DNA of 54,909 nt, taken from the IMG/VR virus record IMGVR_UViG_3300050132_000156, positions 1-54,909 of that record. One strand, 5' to 3'. Source of the DNA: a virus. Its lineage: Duplodnaviria; Caudoviricetes. The notes under the pieces are model-generated. The model did not search any database and was not told the origin of the DNA. It was given only the letters and a program-made list of their open reading frames with translations. Below are positions 1 through 54,909 of this stretch, piece after piece; positions within the stretch are counted from its first letter, which is position 1; every line of letters starts with the position of its first letter. The position numbers and the translations under genes were made by a program.

Positions 1-181
1 GAATATGGAGACTGCTGCGAGGGACGACTTAATATGGCTGACGTAAGAAGTATTAATAATCACCGCACGCTCGCGCCGGATCAGGCGACGGTGCTGCAGT
101 GCAAGGCTGGCGGCGGGGAGTACACTCCCATCGGCGGTGAAAATGGAAAACAGTGCATGCTGTGCGCGATGGACAAGAAGG
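1..181. repeat. Terminal direct repeat, left copy (circular assembly overlap)
   Basis: Identical to 54729..54909 except position 54 (T) vs 54782 (C). Confidence 0.95.
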
Positions 182-8839: not shown

Positions 8840-9706
8840 ATGACTCTCGAACAAATTCTCAAATCCAAGGGCTACACGGACGCAGACCTCGAAGCCCTGA
8901 AACCGATGTTGAGCGATTCGCGCTTTCGCGCCTCGATGGAAGAGCAGCTCGGCGCTCTCGAAAATGAGCGCAACGACTTCAAGGCGAAGTACGAAGGCAA
9001 GGAAACCGAGATTGAGGACTGGCGCGCCAACGTGGTGAATCCGCGCATCGCCGCCGCCGAGCAGGAAGCCGTCAAGGCCCGCCAGGAAGCAGCCCTGCTT
9101 CGAGAGCAAGTCCAGATCGCCAAAGACTACGGGCTGATCCCCGAGGGCGAGAAGCCGGCCGCTCCGCCTTCCGTGAGCGCGACTCCGGGCAACGACTTCG
9201 ATCCCTCCAAGCACAACCTCGTGACGCGCGACGAAATCGGACGCTTTGCCGACCTCGAAGGCCAGGCGATCGCCATGGCGTCCGACGTCCTCGAAGAGTA
9301 CCGCTACCTCAGCGGCGGCAAGTCGCTCTACGACTACGTGGCGCCGGACGGCAAGCGCGGGATGCAGGCCCTCCGCACCGAGGCCGTCAAGCAGAAGATG
9401 CCGCTCGATCAGTTCGTGGCCCAGAAGTTCGATTTCGCCGGCAAACGGCAGGCAATCGAAGCCAAGCGGCAGGAAGAGCACGACGCGCAGATCAGCAAGG
9501 AAGCGATCTCGAAGTACATCACCGAGAACGGAGCGAATCCGAACACCCGCACGCCGGGGCCGTCGCGGAACCCGTTTATCCCGCGCCAGCAGGGATCGAG
9601 CCCGGCGGGCGGGGCCAAGCAGCCGTGGGACGTCCCGGCGCAGGAACGCAAGAACGCACGCCAGGAGCGGGCCATGACCCGGCTGGCGACGGAAAGATTG
9701 AATTAG
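8840..9706 (+). CDS. Probable scaffolding protein
   Basis: Charged coiled-coil protein immediately upstream of the capsid gene. Confidence 0.65.
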   Translation: MTLEQILKSKGYTDADLEALKPMLSDSRFRASMEEQLGALENERNDFKAKYEGKETEIEDWRANVVNPRIAAAEQEAVKARQEAALLREQVQIAKDYGLIPEGEKPAAPPSVSATPGNDFDPSKHNLVTRDEIGRFADLEGQAIAMASDVLEEYRYLSGGKSLYDYVAPDGKRGMQALRTEAVKQKMPLDQFVAQKFDFAGKRQAIEAKRQEEHDAQISKEAISKYITENGANPNTRTPGPSRNPFIPRQQGSSPAGGAKQPWDVPAQERKNARQERAMTRLATERLN

Positions 9707-9752: not shown

Positions 9753-10904
9753 ATGGCAGATCCTCTCTTTGACCAGTTGAGCGCCGTAACTTTAAGCGAC
9801 ATGCAGCGCGACGTCCTCGTCGACAACTTCTTCGTCGACGGGGCGTGGCAGCGGCTCACGCGCTACTACGCCGCCGAGCGTCCCTTCACTGGCGGTCTGT
9901 TCATGCAGATCCCGTTTCAGTACGACCGCGTGAACGGCGGTGCCTACACCCCGGGCGCGGACGTCCAGGTCGTCGAGAAGCAGATCATCGGCGCGATGGG
10001 ATTCATGCCCAAGGCATACAAAGAGGACATCGCCCTCAATCTGTTCCAGCTCGGCGTCATCAACAACGGGCCGGCCGCCGCGGTGAGCATCTACGATGCC
10101 TACTACGAGAACGCGACCTCGGCGATGAGCACCGATCTGAACATCGACGCCTATCAGCACGGCCAGCCCAATTCCTCGACGGTACTGCAGAACCGCACGC
10201 CGTTTATGGACGGCATGGACGAAGCCTGCAACGACGGCGTGAATCCGGGCTTCATGGGCAACGTCTACCCGCTCTACGGCGGGAACACCCGCAACGGCGT
10301 GGTGGGCAACACGCTGAACTCCGTGCCGCTGTGGGCCGGCGACCAGAACGGCAACCCCGGCCAGGTGACTTACTCGCTGCTGTTCGGCGCCTACCTGAAC
10401 TGCGTGCGCCCGCCGGACACCGGGCTGTGCAACAAGGCCTGCTTCCAGTACATCGGCGCGCGCAACGAGCCCAAGCAGATCTTCGCACAGGAAACCGACG
10501 TCCGCATCGGCCTGACGGGCTTCAAGATCATGGAGGCCTACATCCATGTTGACAAGCTCGCCCCGTCCACCAAATACGGGCAACTCCTGCCCGCCGGCCT
10601 GTCAATGACCACGGGCGTGCAGCCGCCGACGAGTTTCACAACCTCAGCCCTGACCGCCACGCAGAAGGCGATCTCGAACTACCCGGCCTCGACCGCCTGC
10701 AAACCCGGCGAGCCGTTCTGGTGGCTGCGGATGCAGGAGTGGCAGATCCGGCCGACCGACGATCCGGAGTACAACCACAACTTCACTCCGCTGATCCGGT
10801 CGCAGAGTAATCCGGATCTCGTTGTGGCCTTCTATAAACTGGCCCTCAACTATTACACCGAGTCCCCGCGCGACAACGTGGAGATCGTGGGAATCGGTTA
10901 CTGA
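9753..10904 (+). CDS. Major capsid protein
   Basis: 383 aa; follows the scaffold; strongly biased codon use. Confidence 0.75.
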   Translation: MADPLFDQLSAVTLSDMQRDVLVDNFFVDGAWQRLTRYYAAERPFTGGLFMQIPFQYDRVNGGAYTPGADVQVVEKQIIGAMGFMPKAYKEDIALNLFQLGVINNGPAAAVSIYDAYYENATSAMSTDLNIDAYQHGQPNSSTVLQNRTPFMDGMDEACNDGVNPGFMGNVYPLYGGNTRNGVVGNTLNSVPLWAGDQNGNPGQVTYSLLFGAYLNCVRPPDTGLCNKACFQYIGARNEPKQIFAQETDVRIGLTGFKIMEAYIHVDKLAPSTKYGQLLPAGLSMTTGVQPPTSFTTSALTATQKAISNYPASTACKPGEPFWWLRMQEWQIRPTDDPEYNHNFTPLIRSQSNPDLVVAFYKLALNYYTESPRDNVEIVGIGY

Positions 10905-10952
10905 CAACTTCGCAACCGCTTCGACCCTGGGCGCATACAAGGAGATTGAACC

Positions 10953-11693
10953 ATGGCATCCGGCAGATTCAGTAAGCAGGCTGCTCCGTTTTTCGGACAA
11001 GGCCGCGCGATCAATAACGGCTCTGGCGATTCGGTCGTCGGAGGCTCCCTCACGGGCGCCCCGTCCGGCATCGGCGCTACAGCATGGCAGCAGAACTTGC
11101 CGGGCGACCGCGTGATCTTCTCGCCCTCCGACGCTCTGGCGTACTCGAACAACAGCGTAGGCAATCTCTACACGGGAACCTACCGCTACGTCGGGACGCG
11201 CAACAACTCGACGTCCTCGCCGGTTCTCGGACGCGCGGCGTTCTGGGACTGCACGGCGACCGGGACGGGCAACAACATCAGTTCGGCGGCCTGCGATGCG
11301 CTTTATCAGGTGAACAGCGACGGCAACGCGACGGGCTACACGAACTCCCTGTTCGCCGGCGTCTACATCAACAACATCGCCAAGGGCAACTGGTGGTGGA
11401 TCCAGGAATCTGGCAAGGCAACCTGCCAGTTCCGTGCGGGGATCACCGGCACGGCGGCGATTGGAGCGGGCGTTTACGTCGTCGGCGGCGTGAACAACAA
11501 CAACGCGACCGACAACGGGGCCTTCGATCAGGTTTCCGGAGCGAACATCGGCACAGGCGGCGCCGCCGCGGCGAACTTCTACGCGAGCGTCGAAGCATTG
11601 CTGCTGGCGCATGTCGGGGTGGCCGAGACGCTCCCGGCCAACAACAACCTGGCGCTGGTCGACCTGTTCCCGATGCGATTTTTCCGTTGGTAG
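10953..11693 (+). CDS. Probable capsid decoration/cement protein, Asn/Gly-rich
   Basis: AAGGAG RBS; follows MCP; beta-rich composition. Confidence 0.55.
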   Translation: MASGRFSKQAAPFFGQGRAINNGSGDSVVGGSLTGAPSGIGATAWQQNLPGDRVIFSPSDALAYSNNSVGNLYTGTYRYVGTRNNSTSSPVLGRAAFWDCTATGTGNNISSAACDALYQVNSDGNATGYTNSLFAGVYINNIAKGNWWWIQESGKATCQFRAGITGTAAIGAGVYVVGGVNNNNATDNGAFDQVSGANIGTGGAAAANFYASVEALLLAHVGVAETLPANNNLALVDLFPMRFFRW

Positions 11694-11704
11694 GATTCGA
11701 GACA

Positions 11705-11731
11705 GCCGCCCGCAGGGGCGTGGATTGAAAC
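11705..11731 (+). CRISPR. Solitary type I-C-like CRISPR repeat unit 1
   Basis: GCCGCCC-GCAG-GGGCG-TGGATTGAAAC: stem-loop plus the type I-C 11-nt handle. Confidence 0.7.
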
Positions 11732-11768
11732 GAGACGGATTTCTTCCGAGTCACTTTGCAGCAGCCTT

Positions 11769-11797
11769 GGGGAGTAGGAAACTACTCCCCTCTTTTC
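11769..11797 (+). terminator. Intrinsic terminator of the capsid operon
   Basis: GGGGAGTAG-GAAA-CTACTCCCC followed by TCTTTT. Confidence 0.8.
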
Positions 11798-11805
11798 ATG
11801 TTTGA

Positions 11806-12072
11806 GTGTATGCTGATGGCATGCTGATCCGCATGGGCGCTTGCCCCGACACTCAGATCTCCGTCAGTTCCTTCGACGACACCGTGGCCCGCGAGAGGGG
11901 CCGGTTGCTTGCGGCCCAGGCAATGGCGAACAATCCCGAGCAGAAGCGCGTCGTGGAAGACACGTTTGGCGTTCAGTATTGCCGGAACCGTTACCCCGAG
12001 GCGTACTACAGCACGCTCAAGACGGGCATCGGGCGGCTTCTCGACAACATGAAAATCTTCCTGACGCAGTAA
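11806..12072 (+). CDS. Small hypothetical protein (start uncertain)
   Basis: 88-aa ORF ending at the -35 of the next promoter. Confidence 0.55.
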   Translation: MYADGMLIRMGACPDTQISVSSFDDTVARERGRLLAAQAMANNPEQKRVVEDTFGVQYCRNRYPEAYYSTLKTGIGRLLDNMKIFLTQ

Positions 12073-12101
12073 TTGACACCGTAAGCGGAATAGCTTATGA
12101 T
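12073..12101 (+). promoter_or_regulatory. Near-consensus sigma70 promoter for the HTH-HNH-methyltransferase cassette
   Basis: TTGACA, 17 nt, TATGAT; GTG start 7 nt downstream. Confidence 0.75.
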
Positions 12102-12108
12102 CTGAGGT

Positions 12109-12360
12109 GTGGAAAACAAAGAATGGCCCCGTCTACAGACCGCAATCCGGGACTACCGGGCCGTTGGTCTCAACGCCACTACGCTGTTAGAGATCATCAT
12201 ATGCCGACTCGTAAAGATCGTGAGCAATGACGGGCTAAGTGCCACTGCTCGCAGGATCGGCATAAGCGCCCAATACCTCCACGACGTAATCCACCACAAG
12301 CGCCCCGTTTCGGAGAACTTCCTCGACAAGATCGAAGAAACGGCAGGAGACGGGCTGTGA
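12109..12360 (+). CDS. XRE/Cro-like helix-turn-helix protein
   Basis: LSATARRIGISAQYLHDVIHHKRPVS HTH pattern. Confidence 0.75.
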   Translation: MENKEWPRLQTAIRDYRAVGLNATTLLEIIICRLVKIVSNDGLSATARRIGISAQYLHDVIHHKRPVSENFLDKIEETAGDGL

Positions 12361-12797
12361 GTTCAATCCTGGAGAAAATCATGGATAAGGTATCTCCTGA
12401 GCCCAACTCTGGATGTTGGCTGTGGATGGGTGCCCTCGGAAGGGACGGATACGGGCAGACGTCATTCCCCTATTTGTCTAAAAGCAGGAGGGCGCATCGG
12501 ATATCTTGGGAATTGTTCAGGGGGGAAATACCGAAAGGGATGGTCTTGGACCACTTGTGCCGGGTCCACTCTTGCGTAAACCCAGACCACCTACAGGTTG
12601 TTACGTCAGCGGAAAACATAAAGCGTGGATTTCGGGACAGAGCGCACAAGAAGCCGGATTGTTGCACCAAGGGCCATCCGTACGATGCGGAGAACACCTA
12701 CTTCTATGGGATCAAACGGGAGAAGCGAGGATGTAAGGCCTGCCGCAGAAAGAACGTTTCCAATTTCTGGAAAAGGAAGAGAACCGCTAGTGCCTAG
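12357..12797 (+). CDS. HNH homing endonuclease
   Basis: SGCWLWMG...RAHRISWE...LDHLCRVHSCVNPDHL, plus C-terminal CxKGH...CKAC. Confidence 0.88.
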   Translation: MSSILEKIMDKVSPEPNSGCWLWMGALGRDGYGQTSFPYLSKSRRAHRISWELFRGEIPKGMVLDHLCRVHSCVNPDHLQVVTSAENIKRGFRDRAHKKPDCCTKGHPYDAENTYFYGIKREKRGCKACRRKNVSNFWKRKRTASA

Positions 12798-14142
12798 CCT
12801 ATCGAACCGCAAGACCTTTTACACCCTCTCAGTCAACGACTACGAGCCCATGATCCAGGAACTCACGTTCCCGCTCATGGAGCAGTACGCCTTGAAGATC
12901 GGTGCCGACTTCGAGGTTATCGAGGAGCGCGAGTTCCCCTCTTGGCCGGTCCCGGTGGAGAAACTGCAGATCTCCCAAAAGGCAAAGGAAAACAGGGACG
13001 AGTGGAGCATCTATGCCGACGCGGATTGCCTCATCAGCCCGGACATGTTCGACGTAACCGAACATCTCCGCAAGGATACGGTCTGCCAGAACGGGCGGGA
13101 CTTCGCCGGAGTTCGGCTCAACGCGGACAAGTATTTCCGGCGCGACGGCCGCTGGACCGGGTGCTGCGGTTGGTTCACTGTCGCCTCGGACTGGTGTGCC
13201 TCCGACCTCTGGCGCATGCCCGACGACCTCACCCCCGAGCAGGCCATCCGCAACTGCCATAGCACCGTCGCCGAGCGGCTGTCTGGAGTCTGCGATGAAG
13301 GCCACCTCGTTGACGACTATCTCCTCGCCCGCAACATCGCGCGCTTCGGGCTGAAATACAAGACCGTGACCGAGATCTGCGCCGAGATCGGCTGGAAGAC
13401 ACCGGACGGGCGCGGCTTCAACCCGGCGCTGTGGCACATCTACGCCCTGCCGCGGGAAGAGAAGATTCGCCGGATGCTCTCGGTGCTCTACACGGAGCAT
13501 CAGCGGGTCATCCCCGACCCGGAGAATCCAAACAAGCCGCCAGTGGGCTCGGGCTGGGGCCTCATGTCGCACGACCAGGCAGCGGACTACATGGAGCGCT
13601 GGAAGAAGGAGATCTACTTCCCGCCGGCGCCCGAGATCCAGGGCTGGATGACGCACGTGGAACTCGACTGGCTGTTCAAGCAGGCCCGCGCACACCAGCA
13701 GATCGTCGAGATCGGCTCCTGGTTCGGCCGCTCCACGCACGCGCTCTGCACGGCCTGCGACGGCCATGTCTCAGCGGTCGATCACTTCCAGGGCTCACCG
13801 GCGGAACTGGCAGGACCGCATCAGTTCGCCAAGACCGGCGACGTCTTCGCGGAATTCTGGAAGAACTGCGGCGACTTCGACAACATGGAAGCCTTCAAGA
13901 TGCCGAGCGCGGAGGCTGCAGCACAGTTCGGGGACGGCTCGCTCGACATGGTGTTCGTGGACGGGGACCATACCAAGGCAGGCGTCCTGGCCGACCTGAC
14001 GCTGTGGCGGCCCAAGCTGCGCCCGGGCGGGCTGCTGTGCGGCCATGACCGTTACCAGGATGGCGTGCCGGCGGCGCTCACGGAGTTCTTTGGCGAGGCT
14101 CCTGCGGCGGTCGCGGGAAGTATTTGGGCAACGTCTGTATAA
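12790..14142 (+). CDS. Glycosyltransferase-like domain fused to a class I SAM methyltransferase
   Basis: DxD motif YADADCL; C-terminal EIGSWFGRST, AVDHF, DMVFVDGDH, LRPGGLLCGHD; start placed at GTG 12790. Confidence 0.78.
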   Translation: MPSLSNRKTFYTLSVNDYEPMIQELTFPLMEQYALKIGADFEVIEEREFPSWPVPVEKLQISQKAKENRDEWSIYADADCLISPDMFDVTEHLRKDTVCQNGRDFAGVRLNADKYFRRDGRWTGCCGWFTVASDWCASDLWRMPDDLTPEQAIRNCHSTVAERLSGVCDEGHLVDDYLLARNIARFGLKYKTVTEICAEIGWKTPDGRGFNPALWHIYALPREEKIRRMLSVLYTEHQRVIPDPENPNKPPVGSGWGLMSHDQAADYMERWKKEIYFPPAPEIQGWMTHVELDWLFKQARAHQQIVEIGSWFGRSTHALCTACDGHVSAVDHFQGSPAELAGPHQFAKTGDVFAEFWKNCGDFDNMEAFKMPSAEAAAQFGDGSLDMVFVDGDHTKAGVLADLTLWRPKLRPGGLLCGHDRYQDGVPAALTEFFGEAPAAVAGSIWATSV

Positions 14143-14147
14143 TTTTT

Positions 14148-14174
14148 GTCGCCCTTCTGGGCGTGGATTGAAAC
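14148..14174 (+). CRISPR. Solitary type I-C-like CRISPR repeat unit 2
   Basis: GTCGCCC-TTCT-GGGCG-TGGATTGAAAC; differs from unit 1 only at position 2 and in the loop. Confidence 0.7.
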
Positions 14175-14388
14175 AAAGTTGGTGCTTCAGGTGCATACTG
14201 ATAAGCGTATGAGCCATCATGATGAGCACGTGCCGCATTGGGTGCGCGAGATCGAGGAACGGCTCAATTCGTTACTGCACTCACGCCGCGAGATTATCGA
14301 ACTGCTCGAATGCCTCTTACATCCGCGCAGACGTCCTCGTCTGGCATTCTCTATTTCCTTTGAAACCGTTCGAGTCCAAGGAGTTAAC

Positions 14389-14733
14389 ATGACGTTTACG
14401 ATGCTTCCGACGCAGAACGTGTCGGCTGTGATTTCCCCCGTTCAGGCTGATGGCGTGACGCCTTCACTGGCAACGCTTTCGGCTCAGACCTACACCAGTT
14501 CGGATCCTTCCGTCCTCACGGCAGTGCAGGATCCGACCAACCCGAGTGCAGTTATTATCACTGGCCTCGGCGTGGCTGGCTCCGCGATCGTCACCGCGAC
14601 CGCGACTGCCACCGAGCCCGATGGTACGACCACGGAGGTCATCACCGGTGCCGTGACGGTCATCCTGGCCGTTCCTCCGCCCGCTCCGGCAGCCGCACTC
14701 GTGTTCACGTTCGGTACGCCGGTCGCGAACTAA
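14389..14733 (+). CDS. Ig-like (Big-2-type) virion protein; possible in-frame extension from ATG 14209
   Basis: AAGGAG RBS; TYTSSDPSVLTA...AIVTATATA beta-sandwich pattern. Confidence 0.6.
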   Translation: MTFTMLPTQNVSAVISPVQADGVTPSLATLSAQTYTSSDPSVLTAVQDPTNPSAVIITGLGVAGSAIVTATATATEPDGTTTEVITGAVTVILAVPPPAPAAALVFTFGTPVAN

Positions 14734-14769
14734 CGCTACACCACAAAGAGGGGGATAGCATCCCCACAT

Positions 14770-14809
14770 GCACGTAGGGCCGGAGGGGAAACTCTCCGGC
14801 CCTACGTGC
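14770..14809 (+). other. 18-bp GAAA-capped hairpin without U-tract
   Basis: GCACGTAGGGCCGGAGGG-GAAA-CTCTCCGGCCCTACGTGC. Confidence 0.75.
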
Positions 14810-14875
14810 GTCTGGCCTCAAAGTCCTTGAGCCTCAATCGTTTCTCCCCTATGCTGAAGGTGAGGTATTGCGTCC

Positions 14876-15238
14876 ATGGCTCTCAACAAGATCCCGGTCC
14901 AGGGCTACCCTTTTTCCGGTTCGGTGAAACGCCAGCAGTGGCTTGGCGACCTGACTGGAAACAACAACTACCAGCAGGCCGGAGATGTGATCTACGCCCG
15001 GGATTTCGGGATGGGCGGTTTCGAGACGTTCGGAATCCCCTTTAGCGGGTATTCGAATTCGGGGACTTATTACGCTCGGGCGTATCCTCCGACGACCGCA
15101 TCGAACTACACCGAGACGTTTGCCCCGGTCTACAACAACGTCACGGTGCATTGGTACTACGCGGCCAACTCTGCCGAAGTCGCCAACAATGCGAACCTTT
15201 CGGCGGAAGTGATTCGGCTCGACCTGCGCGGCGTCTAG
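14876..15238 (+). CDS. Putative virion protein
   Basis: GAGG RBS; Asn/Tyr-rich; within the structural block. Confidence 0.6.
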   Translation: MALNKIPVQGYPFSGSVKRQQWLGDLTGNNNYQQAGDVIYARDFGMGGFETFGIPFSGYSNSGTYYARAYPPTTASNYTETFAPVYNNVTVHWYYAANSAEVANNANLSAEVIRLDLRGV

Positions 15239-15248
15239 GAGGCTCGCG

Positions 15249-16238
15249 ATGAGCTTCGCCTCGATGGCATCGGAGGTCTCCGGCTCCGTGCCGAAGATGC
15301 CCGTGGACTACGCCTACACCTGCGTTAGTAGGGCGTACAAGGATGTCCGGCGGCAGAACCTCTGGTCGTTCCTGCTCTTCGACGCCAACTGGACCACGCC
15401 CTCGATCGTCAACGCCGGGACCGTGACTGTCACGCAGGGCACCAAGACGGTCGTATTCGACGCCGCGGCCTCGGCTGCGATCACGGCCATCGGAGCGTTC
15501 CCGAGCGCGGTTACGCAGCGCCAGTTCCGCATCGGCATCGGGACGATCTACAACATCTGGGCGATCAGCACAACGCTCGGGATCGTCACGCTCACGCTCG
15601 ACCGGAACTACCAGGAAGCCTCCGGGGCGGGCATCGCGTACATGATCTATCAGGTCTACTACGCGGCACCGATGCAGGATTTCTGGAGTTGGCTCTCGGT
15701 CATGGAGACGACCAACTTCAACGACCTCTTGACCACGAAGAGCCGGGCCTGGCTGAACGGAGTCGACCCGCAGCGCACGGTGTTCTACCTGCCCACCCAC
15801 GTCGTCCCCTACCAGAAGGATGCGAACCCGGCGAGCCCGACGTTCGGGTTCATGCTGTTCGAGCTGTGGGGCAGCCCGACGTTCAACCTGACCTATCAGT
15901 TGTACGGCATCCGCAAGGGGCTCGACCTCGTGAACGACGCCGACAATCTGCCGGCCGAAATTGGCGAGGATTGCGTCCTGGCGCTCGCCAAGAAGTACGC
16001 CTACGAGTGGGCCGAGGCGAACAAGGGCGACATGCCGCGCGCCGTGGGGTCGGACTACCGGTTCCTGATCGGGGACACAAAGAGCGAGTACAAGCGGCTG
16101 TACATGGAGTACCGGAAGCAGGACCGGGAAGTGGTGGACAATTGGCGGACGCGGCTGCGGCGGAACTGGACCTGGGGCACGCTTGAGGGCTACTACAGCA
16201 GCATCGCGGGCATAGCGAGTCCAGGGGCAAGTTGGTGA
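15249..16238 (+). CDS. Putative head-tail adaptor protein
   Basis: AGGAGG RBS; helical ends with a beta insert; function from position. Confidence 0.5.
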   Translation: MSFASMASEVSGSVPKMPVDYAYTCVSRAYKDVRRQNLWSFLLFDANWTTPSIVNAGTVTVTQGTKTVVFDAAASAAITAIGAFPSAVTQRQFRIGIGTIYNIWAISTTLGIVTLTLDRNYQEASGAGIAYMIYQVYYAAPMQDFWSWLSVMETTNFNDLLTTKSRAWLNGVDPQRTVFYLPTHVVPYQKDANPASPTFGFMLFELWGSPTFNLTYQLYGIRKGLDLVNDADNLPAEIGEDCVLALAKKYAYEWAEANKGDMPRAVGSDYRFLIGDTKSEYKRLYMEYRKQDREVVDNWRTRLRRNWTWGTLEGYYSSIAGIASPGASW

Positions 16239-54504: not shown

Positions 54505-54760
54505 GCTCGTAAGCAGGGAAACCCTTGACGCCCGCATCGGTCGGCGTTGGAGAAGATGGGCCTATTTGGGAGACAACTTCAAGGAACGGCACGAAGGTTG
54601 GATGCGCTATATATTACTGCGGGGCGTGACAGTGCGGACGATCCAAATCAACAACTTGGACGATCCTCTGCTGGGCGACTTGGACCGTGAGAGGCTTCTC
54701 TCTGATTATCAGGAGCGGAAGTCTAAGAGAATATGGAGACTGCTGCGAGGGACGACTTAA
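54494..54760 (+). CDS. Hypothetical protein
   Basis: GGAGG RBS; stop abuts the ATG of the gene that wraps to 34..399. Confidence 0.5.
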   Translation: MKSRLVSRETLDARIGRRWRRWAYLGDNFKERHEGWMRYILLRGVTVRTIQINNLDDPLLGDLDRERLLSDYQERKSKRIWRLLRGTT

Positions 54761-54909
54761 TATGGCTGACGTAAGAAGTATCAATAATCACCGCACGCTC
54801 GCGCCGGATCAGGCGACGGTGCTGCAGTGCAAGGCTGGCGGCGGGGAGTACACTCCCATCGGCGGTGAAAATGGAAAACAGTGCATGCTGTGCGCGATGG
54901 ACAAGAAGG
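54729..54909. repeat. Terminal direct repeat, right copy
   Basis: Matches 1..181 at 180/181 positions. Confidence 0.95.

Follow-up and report, generated by a model that had tools for sequence, protein, structure and literature searches.

Two solitary type I-C-like repeat units in a peat phage genome as candidate RNA anti-CRISPRs

The DNA analysed here is a peat phage sequence of 54,909 bp from an IMG/VR virus record, and the window denotes this whole stretch. Behind its putative capsid module, two short units resembling the repeats of type I-C CRISPR arrays lie between + strand genes (Table 1). The first stands between a gene directly downstream of the capsid gene and a small conserved open reading frame (ORF); the second follows a gene for a fused glycosyltransferase and methyltransferase. 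The pattern GYCGCCC-N4-GGGCGTGGATTGAAAC matches the window exactly twice, at these two sites, and matches none of 100 dinucleotide-preserving shuffles, confirming the pair of co-oriented units that an earlier note on this DNA had described. A search across the window for the 12-nt tail, allowing up to two mismatches, gave no further credible copy. Elements of this kind have already been described in other phages, and the units are most likely a further instance of a type I-C solitary repeat unit (SRU) and candidates for an RNA anti-CRISPR (Racr).

Table 1. Positions of the repeat units and of neighbouring features in the window
Feature	Coordinates	Strand	Description
246-aa gene	10953..11693	+	directly after the putative major capsid gene (9753-10904)
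Unit 1	11705..11731	+	GCCGCCC-GCAG-GGGCG-TGGATTGAAAC; type I-C repeat layout; predicted Cas5c cut 11720/11721
Spacer-like tail of unit 1	11732..11768	+	37 nt, between unit 1 and terminator
Intrinsic terminator	11769..11797	+	9-bp stem, GAAA loop, then TCTTTTC
88-aa ORF	11806..12072	+	conserved small helical protein of the phage lineage
Sigma-70-like promoter	12073..12101	+	TTGACA-17-TATGAT, 11/12 positions; opens low-GC insert
Cro/XRE-like helix-turn-helix (HTH) protein, 83 aa	12109..12360	+	stop overlaps the HNH start
HNH endonuclease	12357..12797	+	PF13392, E 1.4e-15; phrog_826, E 4.6e-48
GT-A-fold glycosyltransferase and class I methyltransferase fusion	12790..14142	+	two genes past the putative capsid gene
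Unit 2	14148..14174	+	GTCGCCC-TTCT-GGGCG-TGGATTGAAAC; predicted Cas5c cut 14163/14164
174-aa accessory gene	14209..14733	+	downstream of unit 2

Each unit is 27 nt long and consists of a 2-nt lead, a GC hairpin and an 11-nt tail, UGGAUUGAAAC. The predicted fold is the same for both, with a 5-bp GC stem, a 4-nt loop and the 11-nt tail unpaired. The units differ at 5 of 27 positions: the four bases of the loop and position 2. These differences thus all fall within the six unpaired positions of the 5′ end and loop, for which our own arithmetic gives P = 6/80730 (~7e-5) if differences were randomly distributed; the earlier observation that stem and handle are conserved while the loop varies holds. 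Unit 1 begins 11 nt beyond the TAG (11691-11693) that ends ORF 10953-11693, and unit 2 begins 5 nt beyond the TAA (14140-14142) of ORF 12790-14142, as had also been noted. The spacing of an array (spacers of ~30-40 nt) is not seen, there being only two units, 2,416 nt apart and with genes in between. Both are intergenic and solitary, with no array, in keeping with SRUs and Racrs, which are intergenic repeat-like units of viruses or plasmids found apart from arrays and cas genes.

Family searches place the units near CRISPR repeats at low scores. At the Rfam gathering threshold there was no match anywhere in the window, and neither unit reached the gathering score of a CRISPR-DR family. Below the threshold, CRISPR-DR9 was returned at the exact coordinates of unit 2 (21.7 bits) and unit 1 (19.1 bits; cut-off 45). 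Searching the window for the Cas5d family gave no match, nor did a search for Csd1, which matched none of its control genomes either; Pfam scans of the larger ORFs of the window contained no cas families.

As described in PMC8524198, the type I-C repeat has a stem of 7 nt and a loop of 5 nt, with overhangs of 2 nt (5′) and 11 nt (3′), and its recognition by Cas5c (Cas5d) requires the base of the stem, the 3′ overhang and a UGG immediately past the cut, but not the loop or the 5′ overhang. What the two units share, and where they differ, agrees with this rule as that account gives it. Both have an 11-nt 3′ overhang ending in ...GGAUUGAAAC, with UGG right after the cut site. The hairpin is correctly placed at the overhang, but has a 5-bp stem and a 4-nt loop in a unit of 27 nt, compared to the typical 7, 5 and 32.

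The 16-mer GGGCGTGGATTGAAAC is also the ending of repeats in genuine arrays on viral and bacterial contigs. These repeats are mostly 31-32 nt long, and 66 of the 72 distinct ones have a 7-bp stem. The units were said earlier to be shorter than typical 32-nt I-C repeats; this is correct with respect to the 31-32-nt majority, but array repeats of 28-29 nt exist (loci L154 and L198). Over its 3′ 22-25 nt, unit 1 is identical to array repeats of three loci (L261, L056 and L198). In Rhodoferax antarcticus (G003), an array with repeats ending ...GCGGATTGAAC-like (GGCGCGGATTGAAAC) is located ~6 kb from a Cas5d gene; this genome also contains a small number of the dispersed units described below.

At least 116 viral contigs contain the 16-mer, and among the matches listed, 105 have a single copy, seven have two or three, and four have arrays. 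To place the listed viral units relative to genes, distinct units were compared with random positions in the same loci, using co-oriented ORFs of at least 60 codons: 36 of 83 evaluable units lie within 40 nt after the stop of such an ORF, against 306 of 1660 random positions. A terminator-like hairpin is found downstream of 9 of the 83, against 67 of the 1660, and the stems of solitary viral units among these matches measure 3-6 bp in 33 of 93 cases and are missing in six. The units of the window are typical of viral I-C SRUs in placement and at the short end in size.

Comparison with related phages was based on one viral relative (L119) and 26 metagenome loci (L124-L149), whose capsid proteins are 55-75% identical to that of the window. 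The shared gene order comprises a homolog of 8840-9706, the putative capsid gene, a homolog of 10953-11693, the 88-aa ORF, a glycosyltransferase and, further on, a homolog of 15249-16238. In 23 of the 26 metagenome loci the capsid-gene homolog is succeeded by that of 10953-11693; the three remaining loci end within the capsid gene or just after it. All 14 metagenome relatives whose sequence includes the first site have a homolog of the 88-aa ORF after the same upstream gene. This homolog is followed by a glycosyltransferase in seven relatives, alone or with a methyltransferase next; in two others (L140 and L147) the next homolog found past it is that of 15249-16238, and the remaining loci end too soon. 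The first site itself is variable, with gaps of 8-641 nt between the flanking homologs and other small ORFs in several relatives. None of the metagenome relatives covering the sites has a repeat unit. Because relatives have the 88-aa ORF and the glycosyltransferase in this same place but no repeats, the 2.4-kb stretch between the units reads as a mosaic in which a single later insertion stands among ancestral genes, and not as a repeat-bounded unit. The earlier note had proposed to compare related genomes for cassette swaps at the repeats; in the metagenome relatives covering the sites the units are absent, and the genes between them are ancestral. A blastn search with 11000-15000 against phage records gave no match. 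An IS200/IS605-like element, with direct subterminal hairpins bracketing cargo, was also considered and rejected, since the genes between the units are ancestral.

The 88-aa ORF has no match in Pfam, PHROGs or NCBIfam. Its model is all-helical, with a predicted local distance difference test score (pLDDT) of 68, and an alignment of 12 sequences contains seven invariant residues (E30, G32, R33, E51, G55, P64 and E65). With homologs in 14 relatives it is not the orphan it had been taken for, and as a conserved lineage gene it appears to be a poor candidate for the anti-CRISPR protein (Acr) suggested earlier. An acr-aca operon would have one or more small acr genes and an HTH aca gene together behind a strong promoter; here the order is promoter, HTH, HNH and transferase, with the 88-aa ORF upstream of the promoter. 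The Acr and Aca-like roles proposed in the earlier note are not supported. The consensus promoter and the HNH nuclease of the earlier note are both upheld by the matches in Table 1. The HTH assignment stands as a lead: Atlas features and structure are HTH_3-like and NCBIfam gives a weak match, but Pfam gives none. The HTH-HNH stretch has a GC content of 0.52-0.55, compared to ~0.63 around it, and HNH homologs are found at different intergenic positions in two relatives (L124, 612-854; L134, 2885-3268). Given the low GC, its own promoter and these homologs at other positions, the pair is most simply explained as a separate later insertion of a homing endonuclease between two ancestral genes, the HNH protein probably being a free-standing homing endonuclease.

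The proposed fusion of two transferases is secure for its methyltransferase part (PF13578, residues 306-420, E 6.5e-21), but the glycosyltransferase part is assigned by fold (model pLDDT 64, GT-A enzymes at E ~2e-4) and by a D-x-D motif that is invariant in the alignment. A PDB sequence search with the transferase had no match. In two relatives (L125 and L129), an in-frame stop divides the glycosyltransferase from the methyltransferase. Relatives (L125, L129 and L136) encode the two domains in separate genes, and the next gene has a CxxxCxxC motif, read from the DNA as radical-SAM-like. The fold matches of the glycosyltransferase model include the PBCV-1 enzyme that glycosylates its major capsid protein. 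The transferase region may be a virion glycosylation module. The two flanking genes, 10953-11693 and 14209-14733, have no match in Pfam, PHROGs or NCBIfam; the latter is absent from the 26 metagenome loci and from L119 and is present in other, unrelated viral contigs.

Near-identical DNA occurs in peat and permafrost sequencing runs. Contigs of runs X4, X5 and X8 cover unit 1 without difference, and contigs of four runs reveal no joints; the pieces listed do not span all of unit 2. One contig from X8 (permafrost) is identical to the window as far as 14133, immediately before the stop codon that precedes unit 2, and then continues into unrelated sequence, which suggests a strain variant whose junction shortly before unit 2 differs. 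The two ends of the window (1-181 and 54729-54909) form a direct terminal repeat of 181 nt with 99% identity. Because of this repeat, the contig is probably a complete genome of ~54.7 kb, terminally redundant or circularly permuted; the record itself is entered as linear, with 83% completeness. A search for tRNA genes was negative.

The short-stem form of the unit also occurs in bacterial genomes, at no fewer than 120 loci; among the matches listed, these are mostly single copies spread over many contigs of a few betaproteobacterial genomes. In four genomes (G001, G002, G004 and G005; Accumulibacter, Azoarcus, Zoogloeaceae and a betaproteobacterium) it forms part of a dispersed element with ~20-40 copies per genome, and 15-mer matches on both strands number 21-40 in each. 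The element was dissected in one genome. It is ~125 nt long, with two upstream hairpins and a 3′ end of the form GT-CGCCCG-N4-CGGGCG-TGGATTGAAAC, usually followed by AT (62 of 94 copies). Compensatory variants of its stem are seen (CGCCCG/CGGGCG and CGCCCC/GGGGCG). Twelve of the loci compared are copies from G001 (L158, L160, L168, L176, L178, L183, L185, L195, L204, L219, L221 and L269). Among 121 genomes of one family, dispersed copies were found only in the starting genome, arrays in three and a single copy in two. Rfam returns only sub-threshold CRISPR-DR9 for the element and assigns no family, and no published description was found by title or abstract.

On this evidence we favour, with moderate confidence, the interpretation of the two units as SRUs that are slightly miniaturised type I-C repeats and act as RNA anti-CRISPRs, like RacrIC1. 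Viral SRUs are described in PMC10651486 as mimicking repeats and binding Cas proteins into aberrant complexes. We infer that transcription would come from upstream genes and that the units would stand at the 3′ ends of + strand mRNAs or between their genes, unit 1 after the capsid-module genes and before the terminator, and unit 2 after the transferase gene, with the promoter at 12073 as a possible source. Host Cas5c would then bind the base of the stem together with the UGGAUUGAAAC tail and cleave behind 11720 and 14163. The products would hold Cas5c, perhaps along with Cas7 and Cas8c, in complexes that are not productive, and type I-C interference and primed adaptation would be lowered, as for RacrIC1 and RacrIF1. 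The product of unit 1 would in addition resemble a mature I-C CRISPR RNA (crRNA), with an 11-nt handle, a 37-nt stretch of guide length and a 3′ hairpin. A host I-C repeat matching ...GGGCGUGGAUUGAAAC, in a host that targets the phage, would support this interpretation. The earlier idea of an anti-CRISPR island is thereby retained in its link to type I-C and anti-CRISPR function, but the likely agents are the repeats and not the genes between them.

Several observations weigh against such a function. Neither unit has a promoter of its own, the site at 12073-12101 being the single promoter-like one found in 10800-14900, and unit 1 ends what is presumably a late capsid operon, which would be poor timing for the protection of incoming DNA. 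The CRISPR-DR9 scores are far below the gathering score of 45, and the 5-bp stem is shorter than those of Cas5c substrates in the published descriptions available to us. The absence of the units from relatives covering the sites gives no sign of conservation. Among the runs listed with near-identical DNA there is no RNA run. A capsid profile search of the genome collection found no prophage relative that would point to a host with a matching I-C system. Finally, the same mini-unit ends the dispersed bacterial element. Cas5d was found in two of five genomes with this element and not in the other three, which are small and probably incomplete assemblies; because of these three, a Cas-independent role is possible.

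The dispersed element also underlies the alternative that fares best, in which the units are passive remnants of a repetitive extragenic palindrome (REP)-like or miniature inverted-repeat transposable element (MITE)-like sequence, or recombined host repeats, that have no RNA function and might act as recombination sites. We regard this as unlikely. A multi-copy element of ~125 nt does end in the same unit, the units of the window are lineage-specific and lie at junctions where the gene content of relatives differs, and the X8 contig leaves the window just before unit 2. However, only the 27-nt part is present here and not the rest of the dispersed element, and the genes between the units are ancestral rather than cargo. 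Moreover, all five differences between the units avoid stem and tail, and their orientation and post-stop position match the general pattern of viral I-C SRUs.

What follows the units bears on a second alternative. Unit 1, its 37-nt tail and the terminator together have a crRNA-shaped layout and could yield a crRNA-sized product, as expected of a crRNA-like guide (Cracr or crlRNA, or a one-repeat mini-array) loaded in host I-C Cascade, where it would repress the promoter of a host cas or toxin gene or be directed against a competing phage. CracrVA1, as presented in bioRxiv 10.1101/2024.10.29.618823, likewise combines a single repeat-like unit with a spacer-like stretch and a terminator, and the same preprint reports I-C Cracr arrays. 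We nevertheless doubt that unit 1 is such a guide. The first 20 nt of its tail have no exact match in viral contigs, and in a blastn-short comparison of the window with all other loci compared, only the repeat itself was matched, not the tail. No terminator follows unit 2, whose tail continues into the next gene, with the start codon ~34 nt downstream. Matches to promoters depend on the host; the preprint defines a Cracr by a spacer-like part with at least nine matches, proximal to the protospacer-adjacent motif, to a host cas or creT promoter.

That both units lie inside + strand transcription units, directly after stops, and that unit 2 closely precedes the next start codon would also suit sites of mRNA processing or stability, cut or protected by host Cas5c, by another RNase or by the hairpin alone. 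The polycistronic mRNA would be affected at two points, after the capsid-module gene and ahead of 14209-14733, where unit 2 separates it from the transferase gene, and expression would differ between I-C-positive and I-C-negative hosts, a possibility already raised in the earlier note. The dispersal of the mini-unit 20-40 times in some bacterial genomes could be seen in the same light, but these copies are no nearer to the starts of downstream ORFs than random positions (48 of 94 against 419 of 940). Furthermore, the units are missing from all relatives despite conserved flanking genes, and no precedent for Cas5c acting on mRNAs was found in the parts of the literature available to us. We consider this explanation improbable.

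A broader proposal, to which we give a low probability, treats the 27-29-nt mini I-C repeat as a portable Cas5c-recognition module that may serve purposes other than immunity and decoys. Set by the phage within its own operons, it would let host Cas5c or Cascade cut or coat the phage mRNAs, and the RNA of unit 1 would reprogram Cascade. If true, this module and the dispersed element would together point to Cas5c-dependent RNA processing or to mobile elements exploiting Cas5c, an undescribed layer of type I-C biology.

That the two units are the ends of a swappable or mobile 2.4-kb cassette, as the earlier note also offered, is very improbable: they are direct repeats in the same orientation, but the 88-aa ORF and the glycosyltransferase keep their place in relatives that have no repeat, the HTH-HNH pair is an insert of its own with low GC, and in loci L010 and L078 a comparable pair brackets a core gene. 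These two loci, apparently the same virus sequence, carry two full-length I-C-like solitary units in the same orientation and 3.7 kb apart, which flank a portal gene and two small ORFs between terminase-like and sigma-factor genes. Therefore, two units per genome need not delimit accessory cargo, and the relatives of the window add the caution that genes between two SRUs need not form a functional island.

If the two units do act as RNA anti-CRISPRs, they would add a soil or peat phage lineage to the users of RNA decoys against type I-C CRISPR. Activity would also imply that a form of 27 nt with a 5-bp stem is enough for Cas5c, which would help to define a minimal Racr, and two operon-embedded copies with no promoters of their own would broaden the layouts to be searched for.

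The closest known system is RacrIC1, from a Bifidobacterium pseudocatenulatum prophage (Camara-Wilpert et al. 2023, PMC10651486). As reported there, RacrIC1 is a solitary mimic of the I-C repeat carried by a phage, is located 11 nt after an acrIC5 homologue with which it is co-transcribed, and inhibits type I-C on its own. The units of the window share with it the position a few nucleotides past the stop of a co-oriented gene and the absence of cas genes nearby. They differ in being known from sequence alone, in number, with two per genome, and in having a 5-bp stem instead of the usual 7; compared with the gene upstream of RacrIC1 in that report, their upstream genes are a conserved capsid-module gene and a transferase, neither a known Acr. 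The same study applied SRUFinder to IMG/VR3, and for this reason the present record may already be among the SRUs catalogued there. With these viral SRUs, as described, the units share an intergenic location and a likeness to known repeats outside arrays, in a contig that is itself an IMG/VR virus record. Compared to Cracrs and viral crlRNAs, as presented in the preprint cited above, unit 1 has a similar succession of repeat-like unit, spacer-like stretch and rho-independent terminator, but the single-repeat layout is described for type V-A, and membership depends on a partial match of the spacer-like part to a cas or creT promoter. Relative to the canonical I-C repeat of PMC8524198, as outlined there, the units retain the 2-nt 5′ overhang, a GC stem reaching to the cut site and the 11-nt 3′ overhang with UGG, and depart from it in their shorter stem, loop and total length and in standing alone, with no spacers.

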